The notes beneath the pieces are model-generated. The model saw nothing but the letters and a program-made list of their open reading frames with translations. It had not been told where the DNA came from and searched no databases. Both the position numbers and the translations under genes were made by a program. A DNA stretch of 13,465 nt. It comes from a virus. Position 1 is the first letter of the stretch. Each line of letters opens with the position of its first letter. Location: the UHGV virus genome UHGV-0042147, one strand, 5' to 3'. This document shows positions 2,745 to 12,719 of the stretch, piece after piece.

Positions 2745-2906
2745 ATGACAAAACGTCGTAAGAAATACCAGGAAAAAGAAGAGATTCGACACCCTGATTC
2801 ACCTGAGGGATTAGTGGTAGCCGCAGCAAATAACAGGGCGTTCGCAGAGCGCCTTGTTGGTGTTTACAGACTAGCCAAAGCAGGAGTGAAACATGGGCGT
2901 CGTTAA
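2745..2906 (+). CDS. Small basic hypothetical protein (53 aa) between cII and O
   Basis: ATG at 2745 with GGAG 5 nt upstream (2736-2739). 53 codons, lysine/arginine-rich N-terminus. The 3' end overlaps the O start by 14 nt. No recognisable family. Confidence 0.35.
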   Translation: MTKRRKKYQEKEEIRHPDSPEGLVVAAANNRAFAERLVGVYRLAKAGVKHGRR

Positions 2907-3811
2907 GTTAGCTGATTACAGGCCTCAACTGGAGGTCGTGGAGCATCGCGTGGCAGAACTCGAAGATGGCTACACTCGGACTGCAAACACACTGTTAGAA
3001 GCCGCCATGCTTTCTGGACTTACTCTACATCAGTTACTGATTGTTATGGCTGTGTGGCGCAAGACATACGGTTACAACAAAAAAATAGATTGGATCGGAA
3101 ACGAACAGTTCGCTGAACTCACTGGCATGGCACCAACCAAATGCTCTACCGCCAAAAACGAGCTTATCAGAATGGGAGTTCTCATTCAGGTGGGGCGTCA
3201 AGTTGGTATGAATACAAACATTTCCGAGTGGAAAACGAAAGTTAACGGATTCGGTAAAACATTTACCAATTCGGTAAAACAAACCTTCACCAAATCGGTA
3301 AAAAGCAATTTACCGAATCAGTCAAACACAAAAGACAATATACAAAAGACAATAAATACAAATACCCCCTTACCCCCCCCCCCNNNNNNNNNNNNNNNNN
3401 NNNNNNNNNNNNNNNNNNNNNNNNNNNNNNNNNNNNNNNNNNNNNNNNNNNNNNNNNNNNNNNNNNNNNNNNNNNNNNNNNNNNNNNNNNNNNNNNNNNN
3501 NNCGCAAGGCAGAACGAATCGACTATGAATCCTTCCTGAACGCCTACAACACCGAAGTCGGTGACAGACTGCCACACGCTGTTGCGGTCAACGAGAAACG
3601 CAAACGTCGCCTGAAGAAAATCATTCCGCAACTGAAAACGCCAAACGTGGACGGTTTCAGAGCGTATGTCAGGGCGTTTGTGCATCAGGCCAAGCCGTTT
3701 TACTTCGGAGACAACGACACTGGCTGGACGGCAGATTTTGATTACCTGCTGAGGGAAGATTCGTTAACGGGAGTACGGGAAGGGAAGTTTGCAGACAGGG
3801 GGATTGCATGA
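2893..3811 (+). CDS. O: Replication initiator O-like protein (iteron-binding N-terminal domain, P22 gene 18-like C-terminal domain), interrupted by an N run
   Basis: N-terminal part (2893-3383) matches the lambda O N-domain pattern (LEDGY.R..N.LLEA...L...Q..I..A..RKTYG.NK..D.I...Q..E.TG......[10 protein letters not shown]). The ori iterons lie inside it. After the N run a 102-codon frame (3503-3811: [39 protein letters not shown]...) ends with TGA 3809-3811, overlapping the helicase ATG at 3808. Frame across the gap cannot be verified. Confidence 0.8.
3249..3318. repeat. Replication origin iterons inside the O gene
   Basis: Direct repeats ATTCGGTAAAAC at 3249-3260 and 3269-3280, a degenerate copy AATCGGTAAAAAG at 3293-3305, and an inverted copy TTTACCGAAT at 3309-3318, at about 20-24 bp spacing. 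Followed by an A/T-rich segment with a 13-bp direct repeat ACAAAAGACAATA (3328-3340, 3342-3354). Same layout as lambda ori. Confidence 0.75.
3384..3502. other. Run of 119 N (unresolved sequence, probable assembly gap) after an 11-C homopolymer
   Basis: N characters at 3384-3502, directly after the C run at 3373-3383. Confidence 0.99.
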
Positions 3812-5184
3812 GACAGGATATCGAAGCGAGCGTTATCGGTGGCTTGCTGATTGGTGGATTAACACCAACCGCCAGCGACGTTCTGGCAACGCTGGAGCCG
3901 GAAGCGTTTTCAATTCCGCTCTACCGGAAAGCCTTCGAAGTTATCCGCAAGCAGGCGAGAAACAGAAACCTAATCGACGCGCTGATGGTTGCCGAGGCGT
4001 GCGGAGAGGAGCATTTCACGTCAATCCTGATGACCAGCAAAAACTGCCCGAGTGCCGCAAACCTGAAGGGATATGCCGGAATGGTCGCGGATAACTATCA
4101 CCGCCGTCTGGTGCTGGAAATCATGGATGAAATGCGTGAACCAATTCAGAGCGGAACCATCGACGCATCGAGTCAGGCGATGGATGAGCTTGTAAAGCGT
4201 CTTTCAGCCATCAGAAAGCCCCGTGACGAGGTTAAACCGGTACGGTTAGGGGAAATCATCACCGACTACACTGACACGCTTGACAGGCGTCTGAGGAACG
4301 GAGAAGAGTCAGATACCCTGAAGACCGGAATCGAAGAACTTGATGCCATCACCGGAGGGATGAACGCGGAAGACCTGGTGATAATCGCTGCTCGTCCTGG
4401 TATGGGGAAAACCGAACTGGCGCTGAAGATTGCCGAAGGCGTTGCAAGCCGCGTTATTCCTGGTTCTGACGTCCGGCGCGGAGTGTTGATTTTCTCGATG
4501 GAAATGAGCGCATTGCAGATTGCAGAGCGAAGCATTGCCAACGCCGGGAGGATGTCGGTTAGCGTACTGCGAAATCCTGCATCGATGGATGACGAAGGCT
4601 GGGCGCGTGTTGCTAACGGCATGAGTCAGCTTGCAGATTTGGATGTATGGGTAGTCGATGCCTCGCGGTTATCGGTAGAAGAAATTCGCTCAATCGCAGA
4701 GCGGCACAAACAGGAAAATCCAAACCTGTCACTCATCATGGCGGATTATCTTGGCCTGATTGAGAAGCCGAAAGCAGACCGCAACGACCTCGCAATTGCT
4801 CACATCTCAGGAAGCCTGAAGGCGATGGCGAAAGACCTGAAAACGCCAGTTATATCCCTAAGTCAGCTTTCGCGCGATGTTGAGAAGCGACCAAATAAAC
4901 GCCCGACAAACGCAGATTTGCGTGATTCAGGAAGCATTGAACAGGACGCAGACTCAATCATCATGCTCTATCGGGAAGCGGTATATGACGAGAACAGTAG
5001 CGCCGCGCCATTTGCTGAAATCATTGTGACGAAAAACCGTTTTGGCTCGCTTGGTACGGTTTACCAGCGGTTCTGCAACGGACACTTTGTTGCATGTGAC
5101 CAGGATGAAGCCAGACAGATTTGCACAGCATCAAATGCACCTGCTGCGCGTGGCAGACGATATGCACAAGGGGCTGACGTATGA
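3808..5184 (+). CDS. Replicative DNA helicase, DnaB family (phage P22 gene 12-like)
   Basis: 458-aa ORF. Walker A ARPGMGKT, Walker B-like [11 protein letters not shown], DnaB C-terminal motifs ([22 protein letters not shown]). Start overlaps the O stop (ATGA). P22 gp12 is also 458 aa. Confidence 0.93.
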
Positions 5185-5264
5185 CCATCTACATCACTGA
5201 GCTGATAGCAGGCCTGCTGGTAATCGCAGGCCTTTTTATTTGGGGGAGGGTAAATCGTGGCTGA
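5181..5264 (+). CDS. Tiny hydrophobic peptide (27 aa), putative
   Basis: ATG 5181 overlaps the helicase stop (ATGA). Encodes [27 protein letters not shown] with one hydrophobic helix. Too short to support without other evidence. Confidence 0.3.
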
Positions 5265-5463
5265 GTTAATTTTCTCTGCATTGAGGATTCTCGGTGCTAT
5301 GTGGATGGTGGCGACGTTCATTGTTGTTGCCAGCAGTTTTGTCCGGTTGGTAGGCGAAGGTAAAGACCTGGTGGGTGTGCTTTTCGGTAGCATTTTCCTG
5401 TGGGTGATTATCGGTGTTATGCCTGTTGTCGTAGCAAAAGTGGCGTGGCGTTTTGTGAGTTGA
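5257..5463 (+). CDS. Small membrane protein (68 aa, two predicted transmembrane helices)
   Basis: GTG start 5257, 7 nt after GGAGG (5245-5249), overlapping the stop of the 27-aa ORF. Two hydrophobic segments (ILGAMWMVATFIVVASSFV and VLFGSIFLWVIIGVMPVVVA). Stop 5461-5463 sits just before the ninB RBS. Confidence 0.45.
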   Translation: MAELIFSALRILGAMWMVATFIVVASSFVRLVGEGKDLVGVLFGSIFLWVIIGVMPVVVAKVAWRFVS

Positions 5464-5470
5464 GGTAACG

Positions 5471-5917
5471 ATGAAGCAAATATACATGCTTCGCAACGAA
5501 GCAATCAGAAATAACGCCATAGACGCAATACTCTCACTTCCCATCGACGACAAGTCACCTCATGAAGTCCACGTTAGAGAACCCAAACGCAGCAAAGCGC
5601 AGAATGACCGTATGTGGCCGATGCTGAACGATGTTTCGCGTCAGGTGCTATGGCATGGTCAACGGCTGGCGCCGGAAGACTGGAAAGACCTGTTCACTGC
5701 CCTGTGGCTTAAGACCAAAAAACTGGAGCAACGAAGTGTGCCTGGTATCGATGGTGGCGTTGTCATGCTTGGCGTGCGTACCAGCAAAATGCGAAAGGCC
5801 AGCATGACTGAGCTTATCGAAATCATGTTCTGGTTCGGCTCAGAGCGCAACGTGCGATGGAGTGATGACTCCCGGCGAGAGTATGAATGGTCACAACGAA
5901 AAGGGAAGGCTGCATGA
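5471..5917 (+). CDS. ninB: NinB (Orf-family recombination mediator)
   Basis: 148 aa. Motifs shared with lambda NinB as remembered: QN..W..L.DVSRQV.WHG, ...W...F.A, C-terminal WSD......EW....G..AA. Confidence 0.9.
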   Translation: MKQIYMLRNEAIRNNAIDAILSLPIDDKSPHEVHVREPKRSKAQNDRMWPMLNDVSRQVLWHGQRLAPEDWKDLFTALWLKTKKLEQRSVPGIDGGVVMLGVRTSKMRKASMTELIEIMFWFGSERNVRWSDDSRREYEWSQRKGKAA

Positions 5918-6441
5918 CTATCAAATCAAATACGCCAGCACACGACAAGGACTGCTGGCAAACGCCGCTTTGGCTTTTTGATGCACTGGATATTGAGTTT
6001 GGATTCTGGCTGGATTCGGCAGCGAGCGACAAAAATGCTCTGTGTGCTCACTGGCTAACTGAGGCCGACGACGCGCTCAATTCTGAGTGGGTAAGCCACG
6101 GTGCAATCTGGAATAACCCACCGTACAGCAATATCAGGCCGTGGGTGGAAAAAGCCGCTGAGCAGTGCATACAACAACGACAGACGGTAGTGATGCTTGT
6201 GCCAGAGGATATGTCTGTCGGATGGTTCAGCAAGGCTCTGGAGAGTGTTGACGAAGTTCGCATCATCACTGATGGACGGATTAATTTTATCGAACCATCG
6301 ACAGGGCTGGAGAAGAAGGGAAACAGCAAAGGCTCAATGCTGCTGATTTGGCGACCGTTCATCAGTCCTCGACGGATGTTTACCACCGTATCCAAAGCGG
6401 CATTGATGGCGATCGGGCAGGGCGTCAGGAGGGCTGCATGA
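5914..6441 (+). CDS. Phage-type DNA N6-adenine methyltransferase (Dam family, orphan)
   Basis: Start ATG 5914 overlaps the ninB stop (ATGA); RBS AAGGGAAGG at 5901-5909. N-terminal [27 protein letters not shown] and catalytic NPPY motif (WNNPPYSN). No adjacent restriction endonuclease. Occupies the lambda ninC position. Confidence 0.85.
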
Positions 6442-6620
6442 GACGACAGCGACGAAGTATCACCGACATCATCTGCGAAAACTGCAAATACCTTCCAACG
6501 AAACGCTCCAGAAATAAACGCAAGCCAATCCCAAAAGAATCTGACGTAAAAACCTTCAACTACACGGCTCACCTGTGGGATATCCGGTGGCTAAGACATC
6601 GTGCGAGGAATACAAGGTGA
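6438..6620 (+). CDS. ninE: NinE
   Basis: 60 aa [60 protein letters not shown] matches lambda NinE as remembered. ATG 6438 overlaps the methyltransferase stop. Confidence 0.8.
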
Positions 6621-6787
6621 TTGACCCAAATCGAAGTTACGAACAAGAAAGCGTCGAGCGGGCTTTAACGTGCGCTAACTGCGGTCAGAAGCTGCATGTG
6701 CTGGAAGTTCACGTGTGCGCCGATTGCTGCGCAGAACTGATGAGCGATCCGAATAGCTCAATGTACGAGGAAGAAGACGATGAATGA
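6617..6787 (+). CDS. ninF: NinF
   Basis: GTG start 6617 overlaps the ninE stop (GTGA). 56 aa with CANCGQ...HVCADCC zinc-ribbon-like cysteines and an acidic C-terminus, as in lambda NinF. Confidence 0.7.
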
Positions 6788-7502
6788 GTTAATAAATGGC
6801 AATGCCATCAAAATGACAAGCATTGAAATCGCTGAGTTGGTGGGAAGTCGTCCAGATAACGTAAAAATATCAATAGAGCGCCTGGCTAAATCTGGAGTTA
6901 TTCAACTTCCTGCATTGCAGGTTTTCGAAAAAATCAATAACTTAGGACTGCGCCGTAGTGTCGAGGCTTACGTCTTCGAAGGCGAACAAGGTAAGCGCGA
7001 CAGCATTATTGTCGTTGCCCAGTTGTCGCCGGAATTCACCGCTCGCCTTGTTGACCGTTGGCGAGAGCTTGAAGAAGCTGCGGTTAATATCCCCAAAACG
7101 TTACCGGAAGCGTTGCGCCTTGCTGCTGATCTTGCTGAGCAGAAAATGCAACTGGAAAACCAGCTCGCAATTGCCGCACCTAAAGTTGAGTTTGCCGATC
7201 GCGTTGGCGAGGCCAGCGGAATTTTGATTGGAAACTTTGCAAAGGTTGTCGGTATTGGTCCAAACAAACTGTTTGCGTGGATGCGCGATCACAAAATCCT
7301 TATTGCTTCAGGTTCCCGGCGCAATGTGCCAATGCAGGAATATATGGATCTCGGCTATTTCACAGTGAAAGAAACAGCGGTCAACACAAATCACGGAATA
7401 CAGATATCGTTCACCACAAAAATCACCGGGCGTGGTCAACAGTGGCTGACCAGAAAGCTGCTCGATAACGGAATGCTGAAAGTAACAGGGGAGGCTGCTT
7501 AA
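6780..7502 (+). CDS. Rha-family / KilAC-domain antirepressor-like protein
   Basis: 240 aa. N-terminal Rha/AntA-like segment (MTSIEIAELVGSRPDNV). C-terminal antirepressor KilAC-like segment (GILIGNFAKVVGIGPNKLFAWMRDHKILI...YMDLGYFTVKE). Start overlaps the ninF stop. Confidence 0.75.
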   Translation: MNELINGNAIKMTSIEIAELVGSRPDNVKISIERLAKSGVIQLPALQVFEKINNLGLRRSVEAYVFEGEQGKRDSIIVVAQLSPEFTARLVDRWRELEEAAVNIPKTLPEALRLAADLAEQKMQLENQLAIAAPKVEFADRVGEASGILIGNFAKVVGIGPNKLFAWMRDHKILIASGSRRNVPMQEYMDLGYFTVKETAVNTNHGIQISFTTKITGRGQQWLTRKLLDNGMLKVTGEAA

Positions 7503-7792
7503 TGGCTAATCTACGCAAAGAAGCACGCGGCAGAGAATGCCAGGTACGTATTTACGGCGTATGCAATGGTAATCCTGAAACTACAGTTCTGGCACATTAC
7601 CGGATGGCTGGAATTTGCGGAACGGGAATGAAGCCTGACGACCTGATCGGCGCATGGGCTTGTAGCGCGTGTCACGATGAAATCGACCGACGCACCCATA
7701 ATCTCGACAACAAAGACGCCAGACTTTACCACCTCGAAGGCGTGATCAGGACGCAGGCGATACTACTGAAGGAGGGGAAGATTAAGCCATGA
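7502..7792 (+). CDS. ybcO: DUF1364-family protein (ybcO-like, putative zinc-binding nuclease-like)
   Basis: 96 aa with RGRECQVR...CNGNPETTVLAH...CSACHDEIDRR. Resembles DLP12 ybcO as remembered and, like it, sits directly upstream of rusA. Start overlaps the preceding stop (TAATG). Confidence 0.7.
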   Translation: MANLRKEARGRECQVRIYGVCNGNPETTVLAHYRMAGICGTGMKPDDLIGAWACSACHDEIDRRTHNLDNKDARLYHLEGVIRTQAILLKEGKIKP

Positions 7793-8151
7793 ACGAATAT
7801 CAGTTTGTGCTTCCATACCCGCCGTCGGTGAATACCTACTGGCGAAGACGGGGAAGCCAATACTACATCAGCGATAAAGGCCAGAAATACCGAAAAGACG
7901 TTCAGCAAATCATCCGCCAACTTAAGTTAGACATTTTCACCAAATCACGACTCCGCATCAAAGTAATCGCAGACGTTCCGGACTCCCGCCGCCGCGACCT
8001 CGACAACATCCTGAAAGGTTTACTCGACTCCCTTATCCACGCCGGATTTGCGGAAGACGACGAGCAATTCGATGACATTCGCGTAATTCGTGGTGTGAAA
8101 GTACCAGGTGGAAGGCTTGGAATAAAAATCACCGAACTGGAGAACGCATGA
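7789..8151 (+). CDS. rusA: RusA Holliday-junction resolvase
   Basis: 120 aa. LPYPPSVNTYW, RRRDLDN and a C-terminal GGRLGIKITEL block characteristic of RusA. ATGA overlap with the upstream gene. Confidence 0.9.
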   Translation: MNEYQFVLPYPPSVNTYWRRRGSQYYISDKGQKYRKDVQQIIRQLKLDIFTKSRLRIKVIADVPDSRRRDLDNILKGLLDSLIHAGFAEDDEQFDDIRVIRGVKVPGGRLGIKITELENA

Positions 8152-8336
8152 ACGCCACAATTCAAACGATACCAGAGCTTCTTATCCAGACACGAGGCAA
8201 TCAGACCGAAGTGGCAAGGATGCTTTCCTGCGCAAGAGGAACAGTGCTCAAGTACAACCGAGACAGCAAAGGCGAGCGTCACGTAATAGTTAACGGCGTC
8301 CTGATGGTCAAACAGGGCAAAAGGGGAAGGCCATGA
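8148..8336 (+). CDS. ninH: NinH (Fis-like HTH protein)
   Basis: 62 aa. ...TIPELL....GNQTEVARML.C.RGTV.KY... matches the lambda NinH pattern. ATGA overlap with rusA. Confidence 0.8.
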   Translation: MNATIQTIPELLIQTRGNQTEVARMLSCARGTVLKYNRDSKGERHVIVNGVLMVKQGKRGRP

Positions 8337-8956
8337 GACTCGAAAGCGTAGCTAAATTTCATTCGCCAAAAAGCCCGATGATGAGCGACTCACCACGGGC
8401 TACGGCTTCTGACTCTCTTTCCGGTACTGATGTGATGGCTGCTATGGGGATGGCGCAATCACAAGCCGGATTCGGAATGGCTGCATTCTGCGGTAAGCAT
8501 GAACTCAGCCAGAACGACAAACAAAAGGCTATCAACTATCTGATGCAATTTGCACACAAGGTATCGGGGAAATACCGTGGCGTTGCAAAGCTTGAAGGAA
8601 ATACTAAGGCAAAGGTACTGCAAGTACTCGCAACATTCGCTTATGCGGATTATTGCCGTAGTGCCGCGACGCCGGGCGCAAGATGCAGAGATTGCCACGG
8701 TACAGGTCGTGCGGTTGATATAGCAAAAACAGAGCAGTGGGGGAGAGTTGTTGAGAAAGAGTGCGGAAGATGCAAAGGCGTCGGTTATTCAAGGATGCCA
8801 GCAAGCGCCGCATATCGCGCTGTAACGATGCTAATCCCCAACCTTACCCAACCCACCTGGTCACGCACTGTTAAGCCGCTGTATGACGCTCTGGTGGTGC
8901 AATGTCACAAAGAAGAGTCAATCGCAGACAACATTTTGAATGCGGTCACACGTTAG
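8333..8956 (+). CDS. Q: Late-gene antiterminator Q
   Basis: 207 aa beginning MRLESVAKFHSPKSPMMSDSPRATASDSL, with zinc-finger cysteines CRDCHGTG...CGRCKG. Matches lambda Q as remembered. ATGA overlap with ninH. Confidence 0.96.
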   Translation: MRLESVAKFHSPKSPMMSDSPRATASDSLSGTDVMAAMGMAQSQAGFGMAAFCGKHELSQNDKQKAINYLMQFAHKVSGKYRGVAKLEGNTKAKVLQVLATFAYADYCRSAATPGARCRDCHGTGRAVDIAKTEQWGRVVEKECGRCKGVGYSRMPASAAYRAVTMLIPNLTQPTWSRTVKPLYDALVVQCHKEESIADNILNAVTR

Positions 8957-8998
8957 CAGCATGATTGCCACGGATGGCAACATATTAACGGCATAATA

Positions 8999-9036
8999 TT
9001 GACTTTTTGAATAAAGTTGGGTAAATTTGACCCAAC
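8999..9036 (+). promoter_or_regulatory. Late promoter pR' with Q-utilisation (qut) site
   Basis: -35 TTGACT (8999-9004), -10 TAAATT (9022-9027), immediately downstream of Q as in lambda. Predicted transcript start about 9034-9035. Confidence 0.8.
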
Positions 9037-9227
9037 GATGGGTTAATTCGCTCGTTGTGGTAGTGAGATGAAAAGAGGCGGCGCTTACTACCGATTCCGC
9101 CTAGTTGGTCACTTCGACGTATCGTCTGGAACTCCAACCATCGCAGGCTGAGAGGTCTGCAAAATGCAATCCCGAAACAGTTCGCAGGTAATAGTTAGAG
9201 CCTGCATAACGGTTTCGGGATTTTTTA
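9035..9227 (+). ncRNA. pR' leader transcript (lambda 6S RNA equivalent) ending at tR'
   Basis: About 193 nt from the predicted pR' start to the terminator T-run. tR' is a long hairpin (CCCGAAAC 9171-9178 pairing with GTTTCGGG 9212-9219) followed by TTTTTT (9221-9226). The 5' end is approximate. Confidence 0.6.
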
Positions 9228-9678
9228 TATCTGTGCAACAGGTAAGAGCATTGAACCCGCAGACCTCGCGGAATTGGTGAAAGGTGCCGCGCAGTGCTCT
9301 TATCGTTGTGGTGAAGCTCAATGGCGAGCTAGCAGATAGGCGACAGTGAAAATACTAGTCATGTAGCTGACCGCCGCGCGTACTGCAATCGGCAGCGCAC
9401 CGATGGAAGCCGGTTCGATTCCGGCCGCCACAACCCAAACTGAGCCGTAGCCACTGGCTATCCTGAATTCATCAGTGATAGTTACGCTGCTGCCTTCTAC
9501 ACATGATCTTCGTGAAAGCGGGTGGCAGGAGGTCGCGCTAACAACCTCCTGCCGTTTTGCCCGTGCATATCGGTCACGAACAAATCTGATTACTAAACAC
9601 AGTAGCCTGGATTTGTTCTATCAGTAATCGACCTTATTCCTAATTAAATAGAGCAAATCCCCTTATTGGGGGTAAGAC

Positions 9679-10002
9679 ATGAAGATGCCAGAAAAACATG
9701 ACCTGTTAGCCGCGATTCTCGCGGCAAAGGAACAAGGCATCGGGGCAATCCTTGCGTTTGCAATGGCGTACCTTCGCGGCAGATATAATGGCGGTGCGTT
9801 TACAAAAACAGTAATCGACGCAACGATGTGCGCCATTATCGCCTGGTTCATTCGTGACCTTCTCGACTTCGCTGGACTAAGTAGCAATCTCGCTTATATA
9901 ACGAGCGTGTTCATCGGCTACATCGGTACTGACTCGATTGGTTCGCTTATCAAACGCTTCGCTGCTAAAAAAGCCGGAGTAGAAGATGGTGGAAATCAAT
10001 AA
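9679..10002 (+). CDS. S: Holin S (dual-start S107/S105)
   Basis: 107 aa starting MKM (Met1-Lys2-Met3 dual-start motif), three hydrophobic segments. Matches lambda S. Confidence 0.95.
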
Positions 10003-10462
10003 TCAACGTAAGGCGTTCCTCGATATGCTGGCGTGGTCAGAGGGAACTGATAACGGACGTCAAAAAACCAGAAATCATGGTTATGACGTCATTGTTGGCG
10101 GAGAGCTATTCACTGATTACTCCGATCACCCTCGCAAACTTGTCACGCTAAACCCCAAACTCAAATCAACAGCCGCAGGACGTTACCAGCTTCTTTCCCG
10201 TTGGTGGGATGCCTACCGCAAGCAGCTTGGCCTGAAAGACTTCTCTCCGAAAAGTCAGGACGCTGTGGCATTGCAGCAGATTAAGGAGCGTGGCGCTTTG
10301 CCGATGATTGATCGCGGTGATATCCGTCAGGCAATCGACCGTTGCAGCAATATCTGGGCTTCACTGCCGGGTGCTGGTTATGGCCAGTTCGAGCATAAGG
10401 CTGACAGCCTGATTGCAAAATTCAAAGAAGCAGGCGGAACGGTCAGAGAGGTTGAGGTATGA
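9986..10462 (+). CDS. R: Endolysin R (lytic transglycosylase)
   Basis: 158 aa [22 protein letters not shown]... matches lambda R. Overlaps the S 3' end by 17 nt. Confidence 0.95.
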
Positions 10463-10896
10463 GCAGAGTCACCGCGATTATTTCCGCTCTGGTTATCTGC
10501 ATCATCGTCTGCCTGTCATGGGCTGTTAATCATTACCGTGATAACGCCATCGCCTACAAAGAGCAGCGCGACAAAGCCGCATCCATCATCGCTGACATGC
10601 AGAAGCGTCAACGTGATATAGCAGAACTAGACGCCAGATACACAAAGGAGCTTGCTGATGCTAACGCGACTATCGAAAGTCTCCGTGCTGATGTTTCTGC
10701 TGGGCGTAAGCGCCTGCAAGTCGCCGCCACCTGTGCAAAGTCAACGACCGGAGCCAGCAGCATGGGCGATGGAGAAAGCCCAAGACTTACAGCAGATGCT
10801 GAACTCAATTATTACCGTCTACGAAGCGGAATCGACAGGATAACCGCGCAGGTTAACTACCTGCAGGAGTACATCAGGACTCAGTGCCTGAAATAA
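10459..10896 (+). CDS. Rz: Spanin inner-membrane subunit Rz (i-spanin)
   Basis: 145 aa. N-terminal transmembrane helix ([18 protein letters not shown]), then a coiled-coil-like region. N-terminus matches lambda Rz; middle and C-terminus diverge. ATGA overlap with R. Confidence 0.85.
10658..10843 (+). CDS. Rz1: Spanin outer-membrane lipoprotein Rz1 (o-spanin), embedded in Rz in the +1 frame
   Basis: ATG 10658 with AAGGAG 7 nt upstream (10645-10650). 61 aa with a signal peptide ending in a lipobox-like VSAC, followed by a proline-rich stretch ([12 protein letters not shown]). Lies entirely within Rz. Confidence 0.7.
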
Positions 10897-10951: not shown

Positions 10952-11100
10952 ACATCTGAATTTCACAGCGCATCTCACGCGCATATTACATCACCCGAGC
11001 CTTTCAGAAAGTTGAGCCTGAGAACTGCCGTATATGGTGGCGACCATCTCGGGGCGGCTTTTCTGTGAGACAGGCTCACTTTCTAAAAGGTAAAGACGCT

Positions 11101-11619
11101 ATGAATCATCAATTGGCTAATCTCGATTTCCGGGACATGGTGGTTGTTTCTGGTGATCGCGTGATCACAACCTCCCGCAAGGTAGCAGCTTACTTCGACA
11201 AGCAGCATCACCACATCATTCAGAAAATCGAAAAGCTAGACTGTTCGGATGAATTTCTAACCAGCAACTTTTCGCGGGTTACCTATGAACACAAGGGTAA
11301 TCAGTATGTTGAATATGAAATTTCCAAAGACGGTGCGATGTACATCATCATGTCGTTTACCGGCAAAAAAGCTGCCGCCATCAAAGAGGCGTTTATCAAA
11401 GCATTTAATTGGATGCGTGACAGGCTGATGGAGATGGCTCACTCATACCAAAGAGAGCACAACGAGTTAATGCTGGAGTTCATGAAGGAAAAGGATGTTG
11501 CCAGTATGTCAGGACGCTTGCTGAACCGCTGGGGCAGGATCAAAAAACCGCAACTCATAGCAAGAATCAAAAGGCTTGAGCAGCAGGCGCAAATATCGAT
11601 CCCCGGACTGCCAAAGTGA
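11101..11619 (+). CDS. rha: Rha-family phage regulatory protein
   Basis: Probable start ATG 11101 (MNHQLANL...). Rha N-domain pattern VVVSGDRVITTSRKVAAYFDKQHHHIIQKIEKL. Positioned after the lysis genes, as rha is in P22-like phages. The ORF track's 11065 start is an upstream in-frame alternative. Confidence 0.8.
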   Translation: MNHQLANLDFRDMVVVSGDRVITTSRKVAAYFDKQHHHIIQKIEKLDCSDEFLTSNFSRVTYEHKGNQYVEYEISKDGAMYIIMSFTGKKAAAIKEAFIKAFNWMRDRLMEMAHSYQREHNELMLEFMKEKDVASMSGRLLNRWGRIKKPQLIARIKRLEQQAQISIPGLPK

Positions 11620-12293: not shown

Positions 12294-12719
12294 ATGGCGA
12301 CTGAGAAAAAGAACGTCGGTCGCCCTTCGGATTACCTGCCGGAGGTGGCTGATGATATCTGTGCGCTGCTTGCCTCCGGGGAAAGTCTGGTTAAGGTTTG
12401 CAAGCGCCCCGGCATGCCAGCAAAGGCTACTGTATTTCGCTGGCTGTCAGAGCATGACGAATTTAGAGACAAGTACGCGAAGGCAACTGAGGCACGAGCT
12501 GATTCTATTTTCGAAGAGATATTCGAAATTGCTGACAATGCGATTCCAGATGCTGCTGAGGTGGCAAAGGCAAGACTTCGCGTTGATACCCGCAAATGGG
12601 CGCTGGCCCGAATGAATCCACGTAAGTATGGCGACAAGGTAACTAATGAGCTTGTCGGCAAAGACGGCGGCGCAATCCAGATTGAAACATCACCGATGAG
12701 CACTCTATTCGGAAAATGA
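12294..12719 (+). CDS. Terminase small subunit (TerS)
   Basis: 141 aa. N-terminal [26 protein letters not shown]...TVFRWL is the HTH pattern of a common phage small-terminase family. ATGA overlap with the large subunit. Not lambda Nu1. Confidence 0.8.

Follow-up and report, generated by a model that had tools for sequence, protein, structure and literature searches.

A gene for a 175-amino acid orphan N6-adenine DNA methyltransferase is found in the nin region of a lambdoid phage genome, UHGV virus genome UHGV-0042147. The DNA that was analysed, referred to here as the window, is 13,465 nucleotides in length (13.5 kb) and is the early-right and late segment of a lambdoid phage. The gene, dam, is located between ninB and ninE, and its product is identical in amino acid sequence to a phage protein that has been reported to target GATC. 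Its most probable function, with a likelihood of about 0.8, is that of a GATC-specific orphan DNA adenine methyltransferase that is expressed together with the early-right lytic operon.

Gene boundaries and family assignment

The dam gene extends from position 5914 to 6441 on the + strand. The reading frame is intact and runs for 175 codons from the ATG at 5914 to the TGA that ends at 6441, with no frameshift or internal stop codon. It overlaps both neighboring genes through the sequence ATGA. The TGA of ninB (5915–5917) overlaps the ATG of dam (5914–5916), and the TGA of dam (6439–6441) overlaps the ATG of ninE (6438–6440). There is an alternative in-frame ATG at 5887 that adds nine codons and gives a protein of 184 amino acids; the annotation of phage mEp213 uses the equivalent start. 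ATG 5914 is the more likely of the two, as it is preceded by AAGGGAAGG, forms the ATGA overlap with the ninB stop codon and corresponds to the start annotated in phage VT2-Sakai. The mEp213-style start is judged to be less likely.

At the amino acid level, full-length profile matches above the curated cutoffs place the product in Pfam family PF05869, DNA N-6-adenine-methyltransferase (Dam) (E 6.4e-65, 218.4 bits with a cutoff of 28.1, profile positions 1–167 of 169) and in the NCBIfam equivalog TIGR01712 (E 9.7e-80, 265.9 bits with a cutoff of 97.05, positions 1–165 of 165). The protein also matches PHROG 111 (phrog_111), "DNA methyltransferase", with an E value of 9e-88. Judged by these profile scores, the predicted identity of the product as a methyltransferase is far beyond chance.

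Catalytic motif IV, NPPY, is found at residues 68–71 (6115–6126, + strand), at the end of a predicted strand that spans residues 64–68. It is the sole (D/N/S)PP(Y/F/W/H) motif in any substantial open reading frame of the window. A motif I-like sequence, LDSAAS, is at residues 33–38 (6010–6027, + strand) and ends the first predicted beta-strand; given its position in the predicted fold, this is the presumed AdoMet-binding loop. The protein was aligned with 25 full-length homologues of 59–94% identity, which come from Escherichia, Pectobacterium, Serratia, Edwardsiella, Providencia, Yersinia, Photorhabdus, Xenorhabdus and other sources. Forty-eight alignment columns are invariant across the 25 homologues and all are, by definition, present in the window protein. 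These columns include N68-P-P-Y71-S72, which encompasses the NPPY motif, and L33, D34 and A36 of the LDSAAS segment, where A37 is nearly invariant. Also invariant are T17 and P18 at the N-terminus, P97, D99 and S101, the residues G121, R122 and F125, the pair K139 and G140, and I145-W-R-P148.

An earlier interpretation made from the nucleotide sequence, termed here the sequence-only reading, described a complete NPPY-motif methyltransferase that is wedged between ninB and ninE with overlapping stop and start codons, and named the loss of catalytic residues on close alignment as an observation that would speak against it. The 175-codon frame, the PF05869 and TIGR01712 matches, the invariance of NPPY and the presence of ATGA at both junctions all agree with the description. 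As the 48 invariant columns, including NPPY, are intact, no catalytic residue has been lost.

Identity with the Dam of phage VT2-Sakai

The window protein is identical at 175 of 175 residues to the Dam of the Stx2 (Shiga-toxin) phage VT2-Sakai (BAA94133.1), which we take to be the enzyme entered in REBASE as M.EcoVT2Dam. The ninB-dam-ninE DNA of VT2-Sakai is ∼97.5% identical to that of the window, in a match that covers 89% of the ninB-dam-ninE query, and differences within dam are only synonymous. In VT2-Sakai, dam occupies the same slot between a ninB homologue and ninE and has the same overlapping junctions. The downstream mosaics differ. The window has ninF, a KilAC antirepressor gene, ybcO, rusA and a Q gene of the lambda type; in VT2-Sakai there are roi, ninG and a Q gene of the 933W type. 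The other closest relatives of the window Dam are the Dam of Phi24B, whose gene is identical, and gp62 of HK97.

M.EcoVT2Dam is stated to be "known to target 5′-GATC-3′" in a methylome study of O111 STEC that cites Radlinska and Bujnicki (PMC6602927), and VT-2 is listed among the phages with Dam-like genes in a later paper co-authored by Radlinska (PMC7556043). The GATC specificity of M.EcoVT2Dam is thus given here as it appears in two secondary citations of the original work (Radlinska and Bujnicki, 2001, Acta Microbiol Pol 50:161–167). We infer that the cloned 'VT-2 dam' is the nin-region gene, as the VT2-Sakai record gives the name dam to this gene alone and the first 13.6 kb of VT2-Sakai contain no further (D/N/S)PP(Y/F/W/H) motif. 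The VT2-Sakai protein H0075 was considered as a second methyltransferase and rejected, as it is a DUF551 protein.

Older members of PF05869 are the T1 Dam (M.EcoT1Dam) and the Dam of Haemophilus phage HP1. These are distant sequences from unrelated phage types; the VT2-Sakai annotation names HP1 Orf13 and T1 M.T1 as similar to Dam. The T1 Dam has been described as G(m6)ATC-modifying, and a relative of this T1 enzyme, M.Btr190III, was reported to methylate GATC when cloned and to display noticeable off-target activity (PMC4996451).

This raises the question of whether the dam product is an adenine methyltransferase of relaxed specificity, for which GATC is only the best site and which serves as a broad anti-restriction device that modifies many adenine contexts. 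The 175-amino acid protein has no separate target-recognition domain, and non-specific adenine methyltransferases are known from prophages, e.g. Hia5/Hin1523 (PMC3299994). On the other hand, the identical protein M.EcoVT2Dam is recorded as GATC-specific, and M.Btr190III, which has the off-target activity, is only 35% identical to the T1 Dam. The Hia5 group is a different, Dam-related family that has DPPY and FxGxG motifs and is described from Mu-like prophages (PMC3299994); membership of the dam product in this group was rejected. In addition, O111 strain 95NR1 has two near-identical dam copies, and the methylome study assigns no extra unexplained m6A motif to them (PMC6602927). Relaxed specificity is therefore considered unlikely, and GATC remains the preferred target.

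Predicted fold and the meaning of "Dam"

The sequence-only reading termed the enzyme Dam-type. This is appropriate with respect to the reported GATC specificity of the identical protein, but it does not extend to the amino acid sequence, which has no match to the E. coli or T4 Dam. No PDB chain, including those of E. coli, T4 and DpnM Dam, was matched at E values up to 10 either by phmmer or by a 25-sequence profile. In Pfam, neither PF02086 (MethyltransfD12) nor the M.TaqI-type families matched the protein at an E value of 0.01 or better. Sequence searches also found no solved structure of the PF05869/TIGR01712 family.

An AlphaFold2 model was built on the alignment (mean pLDDT 84, pTM 0.84) and shows alternating strands and helices. 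In structure comparisons the model best resembles PCIF1, a cap adenosine N6-methyltransferase (score 10.2, aligned length 144), which is also the top match by Foldseek. This is followed by M.TaqI (9.3, 133), M.BseCI (8.9, 142), and the type I HsdM subunits, MmeI and CamA (8.1–8.4, 143–146). Scores are lower for E. coli Dam (7.7, 106), DpnM (7.1, 106) and T4 Dam (6.9, 103). In the predicted model, motif I is ∼30 residues ahead of NPPY with no inserted domain between the two, and the chain stops ∼25 residues past the last predicted strand. The order of motifs, the short C-terminus and the fold matches together suggest a minimal catalytic domain. The predicted fold is closest to the catalytic domains of M.TaqI-type (gamma-class) enzymes, and it is without a separate target-recognition domain.

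The protein differs from both groups of known enzymes with which it may be compared. M.TaqI, M.BseCI, HsdM, MmeI and CamA are 320–750 amino acids in length or longer, and their specificity resides in a C-terminal or separate domain or subunit that the window protein does not have. The Dams of E. coli and T4 and DpnM belong to the alpha class (PF02086), which has the target-recognition domain between motifs I–III and motif IV. This layout is not found in the window protein, which is ∼100 residues shorter than these enzymes and has no detectable sequence similarity to them. The window protein is a Dam by specificity and not by descent, and the GATC specificity that it has in common with the alpha-class Dams is convergent and not inherited.

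The predicted model suggests how the enzyme may function at the residue level. A minimal Rossmann-type core would bind AdoMet at the loop after strand 1, i.e. at LDSAAS, and the flipped-out adenine would enter the NPPY pocket. Sequence reading would presumably be by a conserved N-terminal segment that includes S5, T7, D13 and W15-Q-T-P18, and by the likewise conserved beta6–beta7 hairpin with residues G121, R122, F125, K139 and G140. There is a slim chance that GATC is read in an undescribed, minimal manner, by a dimer or by the N-terminal arm together with the beta6–beta7 hairpin, or that the enzyme has a second activity, such as relaxed activity on DNA or activity on RNA. The window itself displays no positive sign of unusual GATC reading or of a second activity.

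RNA as the real substrate has a precedent. M.EcoPA8orf6770P, another Stx-prophage 'DNA adenine methyltransferase', is an enzyme of the MT-A70 family with 16S rRNA as its substrate (Gong et al., 2024, PMC10810198). Like the dam product, this enzyme is an orphan from lambdoid prophages of the Stx type and carries the annotation DNA adenine (GATC) methyltransferase. It differs in family and motif (MT-A70, DPPW), in location, which is beside int in the early-left region, and in its requirement for a partner, PNB-2. There is no DPPW motif anywhere in the window and no MT-A70 Pfam match to the dam protein, which has NPPY; the gene upstream of dam is ninB and not that of PNB-2. The proposal that dam encodes this enzyme was rejected, and the two methyltransferases of Stx-type prophages should not be confused. 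That the dam product acts on RNA in place of DNA is very improbable.

Lack of a restriction partner

Among the open reading frames of the 13.5-kb window that were scanned against Pfam, PHROGs or PADLOC, there is no restriction-endonuclease-like gene, and BstA is the only one with a match to a restriction or defence family. For the lysis genes, the large terminase subunit and a few small open reading frames, names were taken solely from the annotations of phages and E. coli. The best PADLOC models for the dam protein are the "orphan methyltransferase" models of that collection. The flanking genes are ninB and ninE, and no endonuclease gene adjoins dam, as would be expected of a type II restriction-modification system. 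As no restriction-enzyme partner was found in the window, the term orphan, which had been used in the sequence-only reading, is correct.

The one gene in the vicinity that might suggest otherwise is ybcO (7502–7792), which is 1 kb downstream of dam and matches PF07102, 'putative nuclease YbcO'. Conceivably, dam could represent the methylase half of a restriction-modification system with YbcO as a hidden endonuclease. However, the nin region of VT2-Sakai encodes an identical Dam and has neither YbcO nor RusA, and the same applies to the dam-bearing nin regions of phages mEp213 and Oslo. YbcO was rejected as a restriction partner and the likelihood of such a system is negligible.

The ninB–ninE slot

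The gene upstream of dam, ninB (5471–5917, + strand), encodes an Orf-family recombination mediator (PF05772, E 2e-48; phrog_72), and the downstream gene, ninE (6438–6620, + strand), matches PF05322 (E 2e-43). In phage lambda the order is ninB-ninC-ninD-ninE. Both ninC and ninD are absent from the window. Thus the description of dam as being in place of lambda ninC holds in so far as ninC is missing, but dam is not an allele of ninC. Salmonella phage Oslo (vB_SosS_Oslo; L004, 1514–3666) has the order ninB-dam-ninC-ninD-ninE, and the presence of both dam and ninC shows that these are separate cassettes that are able to coexist. The dam gene is one of several interchangeable cassettes in the ninB–ninE slot.

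The two borders of the dam cassette have the same 10-mer, GGCTGCATGA, which consists of a Shine-Dalgarno tail, a spacer and ATGA. One copy is at the ninB/dam boundary (5908–5917, + strand) and the second is at the dam/ninE boundary (6432–6441, + strand). A near-identical sequence is found in lambda (L003) at the ninB/ninC and ninC/ninD junctions. With two exact matches and two that have one mismatch, the occurrence of GGCTGCATGA exceeds that in 196 of 200 shuffles. The tight packing of nin regions with ATGA junctions is already known (PMC8022706). It is plausible that the common junction sequence provides translational coupling as well as micro-homology for the exchange of cassettes.

Expression and proposed role in the phage

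An intrinsic-terminator-like hairpin, AGGCCTGC...GCAGGCCT followed by TTTTATTT (5210–5243, + strand), lies between the gene for the helicase and those of the nin region. The hairpin proper (5210–5233) has an 8-bp stem with six GC pairs and, together with the TTTTATTT that follows, is strongly terminator-like. By analogy with the map of lambda, it would occupy the position of tR2, and its presence implies that transcription of dam depends on antitermination of the pR transcript. No sigma-70-like promoter match is present in the region 5000–7000. The tR2-like terminator, the lack of a promoter-like site and the ATGA couplings suggest that dam is a delayed-early gene that is read from the antiterminated pR transcript. 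The identical dam of Phi24B is reported to be expressed in the lytic cycle, with a significant change on induction (PMC3342100).

The sequence-only reading also mentioned that orphan phage methyltransferases can alter host gene expression in lysogens. A role of dam in the lysogen, in which it would alter gene expression or GATC methylation in the host or stabilise lysogeny, is suggested by Phi24B, as dam clones of this phage were picked up by an antiserum raised against a lysogen. The authors speculate that Phi24B dam may supplement the Dam of the host, on which stable lysogeny by 933W depends (PMC3342100). The position of dam argues against this, as the gene is downstream of a terminator in the cI-repressed pR operon and lacks a promoter-like site. 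These properties, and the lytic-cycle expression of the Phi24B gene, make a role in stable lysogens unlikely. In addition, nearly all GATC sites are already methylated by hosts with a Dam of their own, which also disfavors such a role. Action in the lysogen is thus regarded as improbable, and the preferred interpretation is one of function in lytic growth.

In the proposed lytic role, the ATGA overlaps would couple translation of dam to that of ninB and ninE, and the N-antiterminated pR transcript would give rise to the product in lytic growth or upon induction. The enzyme may then top up GATC methylation on fast-replicating phage DNA that is under-methylated by the host Dam, with fully methylated progeny phage DNA as the outcome. 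Full methylation would shield phage DNA from methylation-sensitive, GATC-cutting restriction in hosts without Dam, and the DNA would no longer be a hemimethylated substrate for MutH or SeqA. This GATC top-up is put forward tentatively, at somewhat less than even odds, as the most likely benefit to the phage. When the host is a dam+ E. coli, the activity of the phage enzyme looks largely redundant.

The nucleotide composition of the window also relates to GATC. This tetramer is found 29 times, where 71 copies are expected from a second-order model based on trinucleotide frequencies (ratio 0.41, z −6.9), and among the 16 palindromic tetramers it shows the strongest depletion, despite the GATC methylase that the phage itself encodes. 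The longest GATC-free stretch spans 3.3 kb (3093–6411). The depletion suggests that selection acts on the number of sites as well, and it seems that the phage also uses sequence composition to limit exposure to GATC-dependent processes.

Other features of the window

Other genes of the window are in keeping with a lambdoid phage map. On the − strand are a BstA gene (307–1212) and the cI-type repressor gene (1299–2012). On the + strand, these are followed by cro (2113–2313), cII (2372–2710), the replication gene O (2893–3808), a DnaB-type helicase gene (3808–5184) and a small open reading frame that matches phrog_1165 (5257–5463). Downstream of ninE on the same strand are ninF (within 6575–6787), the KilAC antirepressor gene (6780–7502), ybcO, rusA (7789–8151), ninH (8148–8336) and Q (8333–8956). 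The late portion, also on the + strand, consists of lysis genes (9679–10896), a Rha-family gene (11065–11619), the small terminase gene (12294–12719) and the large terminase gene, which is of the PBSX type and extends from 12716 onward. The names of the lysis genes and the terminase large subunit are from the mEp213 annotation and a list of E. coli matches.

BstA is a prophage-encoded abortive-infection defence protein. The window gene is directly downstream of the cI-type repressor gene and encodes a protein of 301 amino acids that matches the BstA model of PADLOC over its full length (E 1.3e-105) and has no Pfam match. Replication gene O is broken by a gap of 119 N at 3384–3502, which follows a poly-C tract inside the gene, and the run of N indicates that the assembly from which the window derives is gapped or masked. 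The apparent 211-amino acid open reading frame of O (2893–3528) is an artefact of the gap. Compared with O of phage mEp213, the C-terminal portion (3503–3808) has an identity of 100% and the N-terminal part one of only 48%.

Two regulator genes of the antirepressor/Rha type are present. The first encodes the KilAC-domain Ant and is an insertion in the nin region, with ninF on one side and ybcO on the other; the second encodes a Rha plus ORF11CD3 protein and is situated between the lysis genes and the terminase genes. Stx phages carry tRNAs and toxin genes between Q and the holin gene. In the window, the corresponding ∼720 bp (8956–9679) have no notable open reading frame, tRNA or Rfam match and thus represent an 'empty' late-promoter region. 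Scans for Rfam families and tRNAs over the entire window also found nothing.

Prevalence and significance

The dam gene is already known. It is a common gene of lambdoid phages that has been characterised and is annotated automatically by NCBI. A megablast search with ninB-dam-ninE matched 418 phage records, mostly of lambdoid coliphages, Stx-converting phages and Salmonella phages. At a nucleotide identity of at least 95%, dam is present in 1566 of 5426 complete E. coli genomes (∼29%), with up to five copies per genome. The E. coli copies that were inspected are located between NinB and NinE and are annotated as "phage N-6-adenine-methyltransferase".

To the questions that concern the family as a whole, i.e. 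how a small domain reads GATC and how a phage benefits when the host is Dam+, the copy in the window adds nothing. A second activity of the enzyme, if it were found to be true, would matter for the induction of Stx-type prophages. For annotation, the message is that "Dam" in these phages signifies the same specificity in a different protein family.
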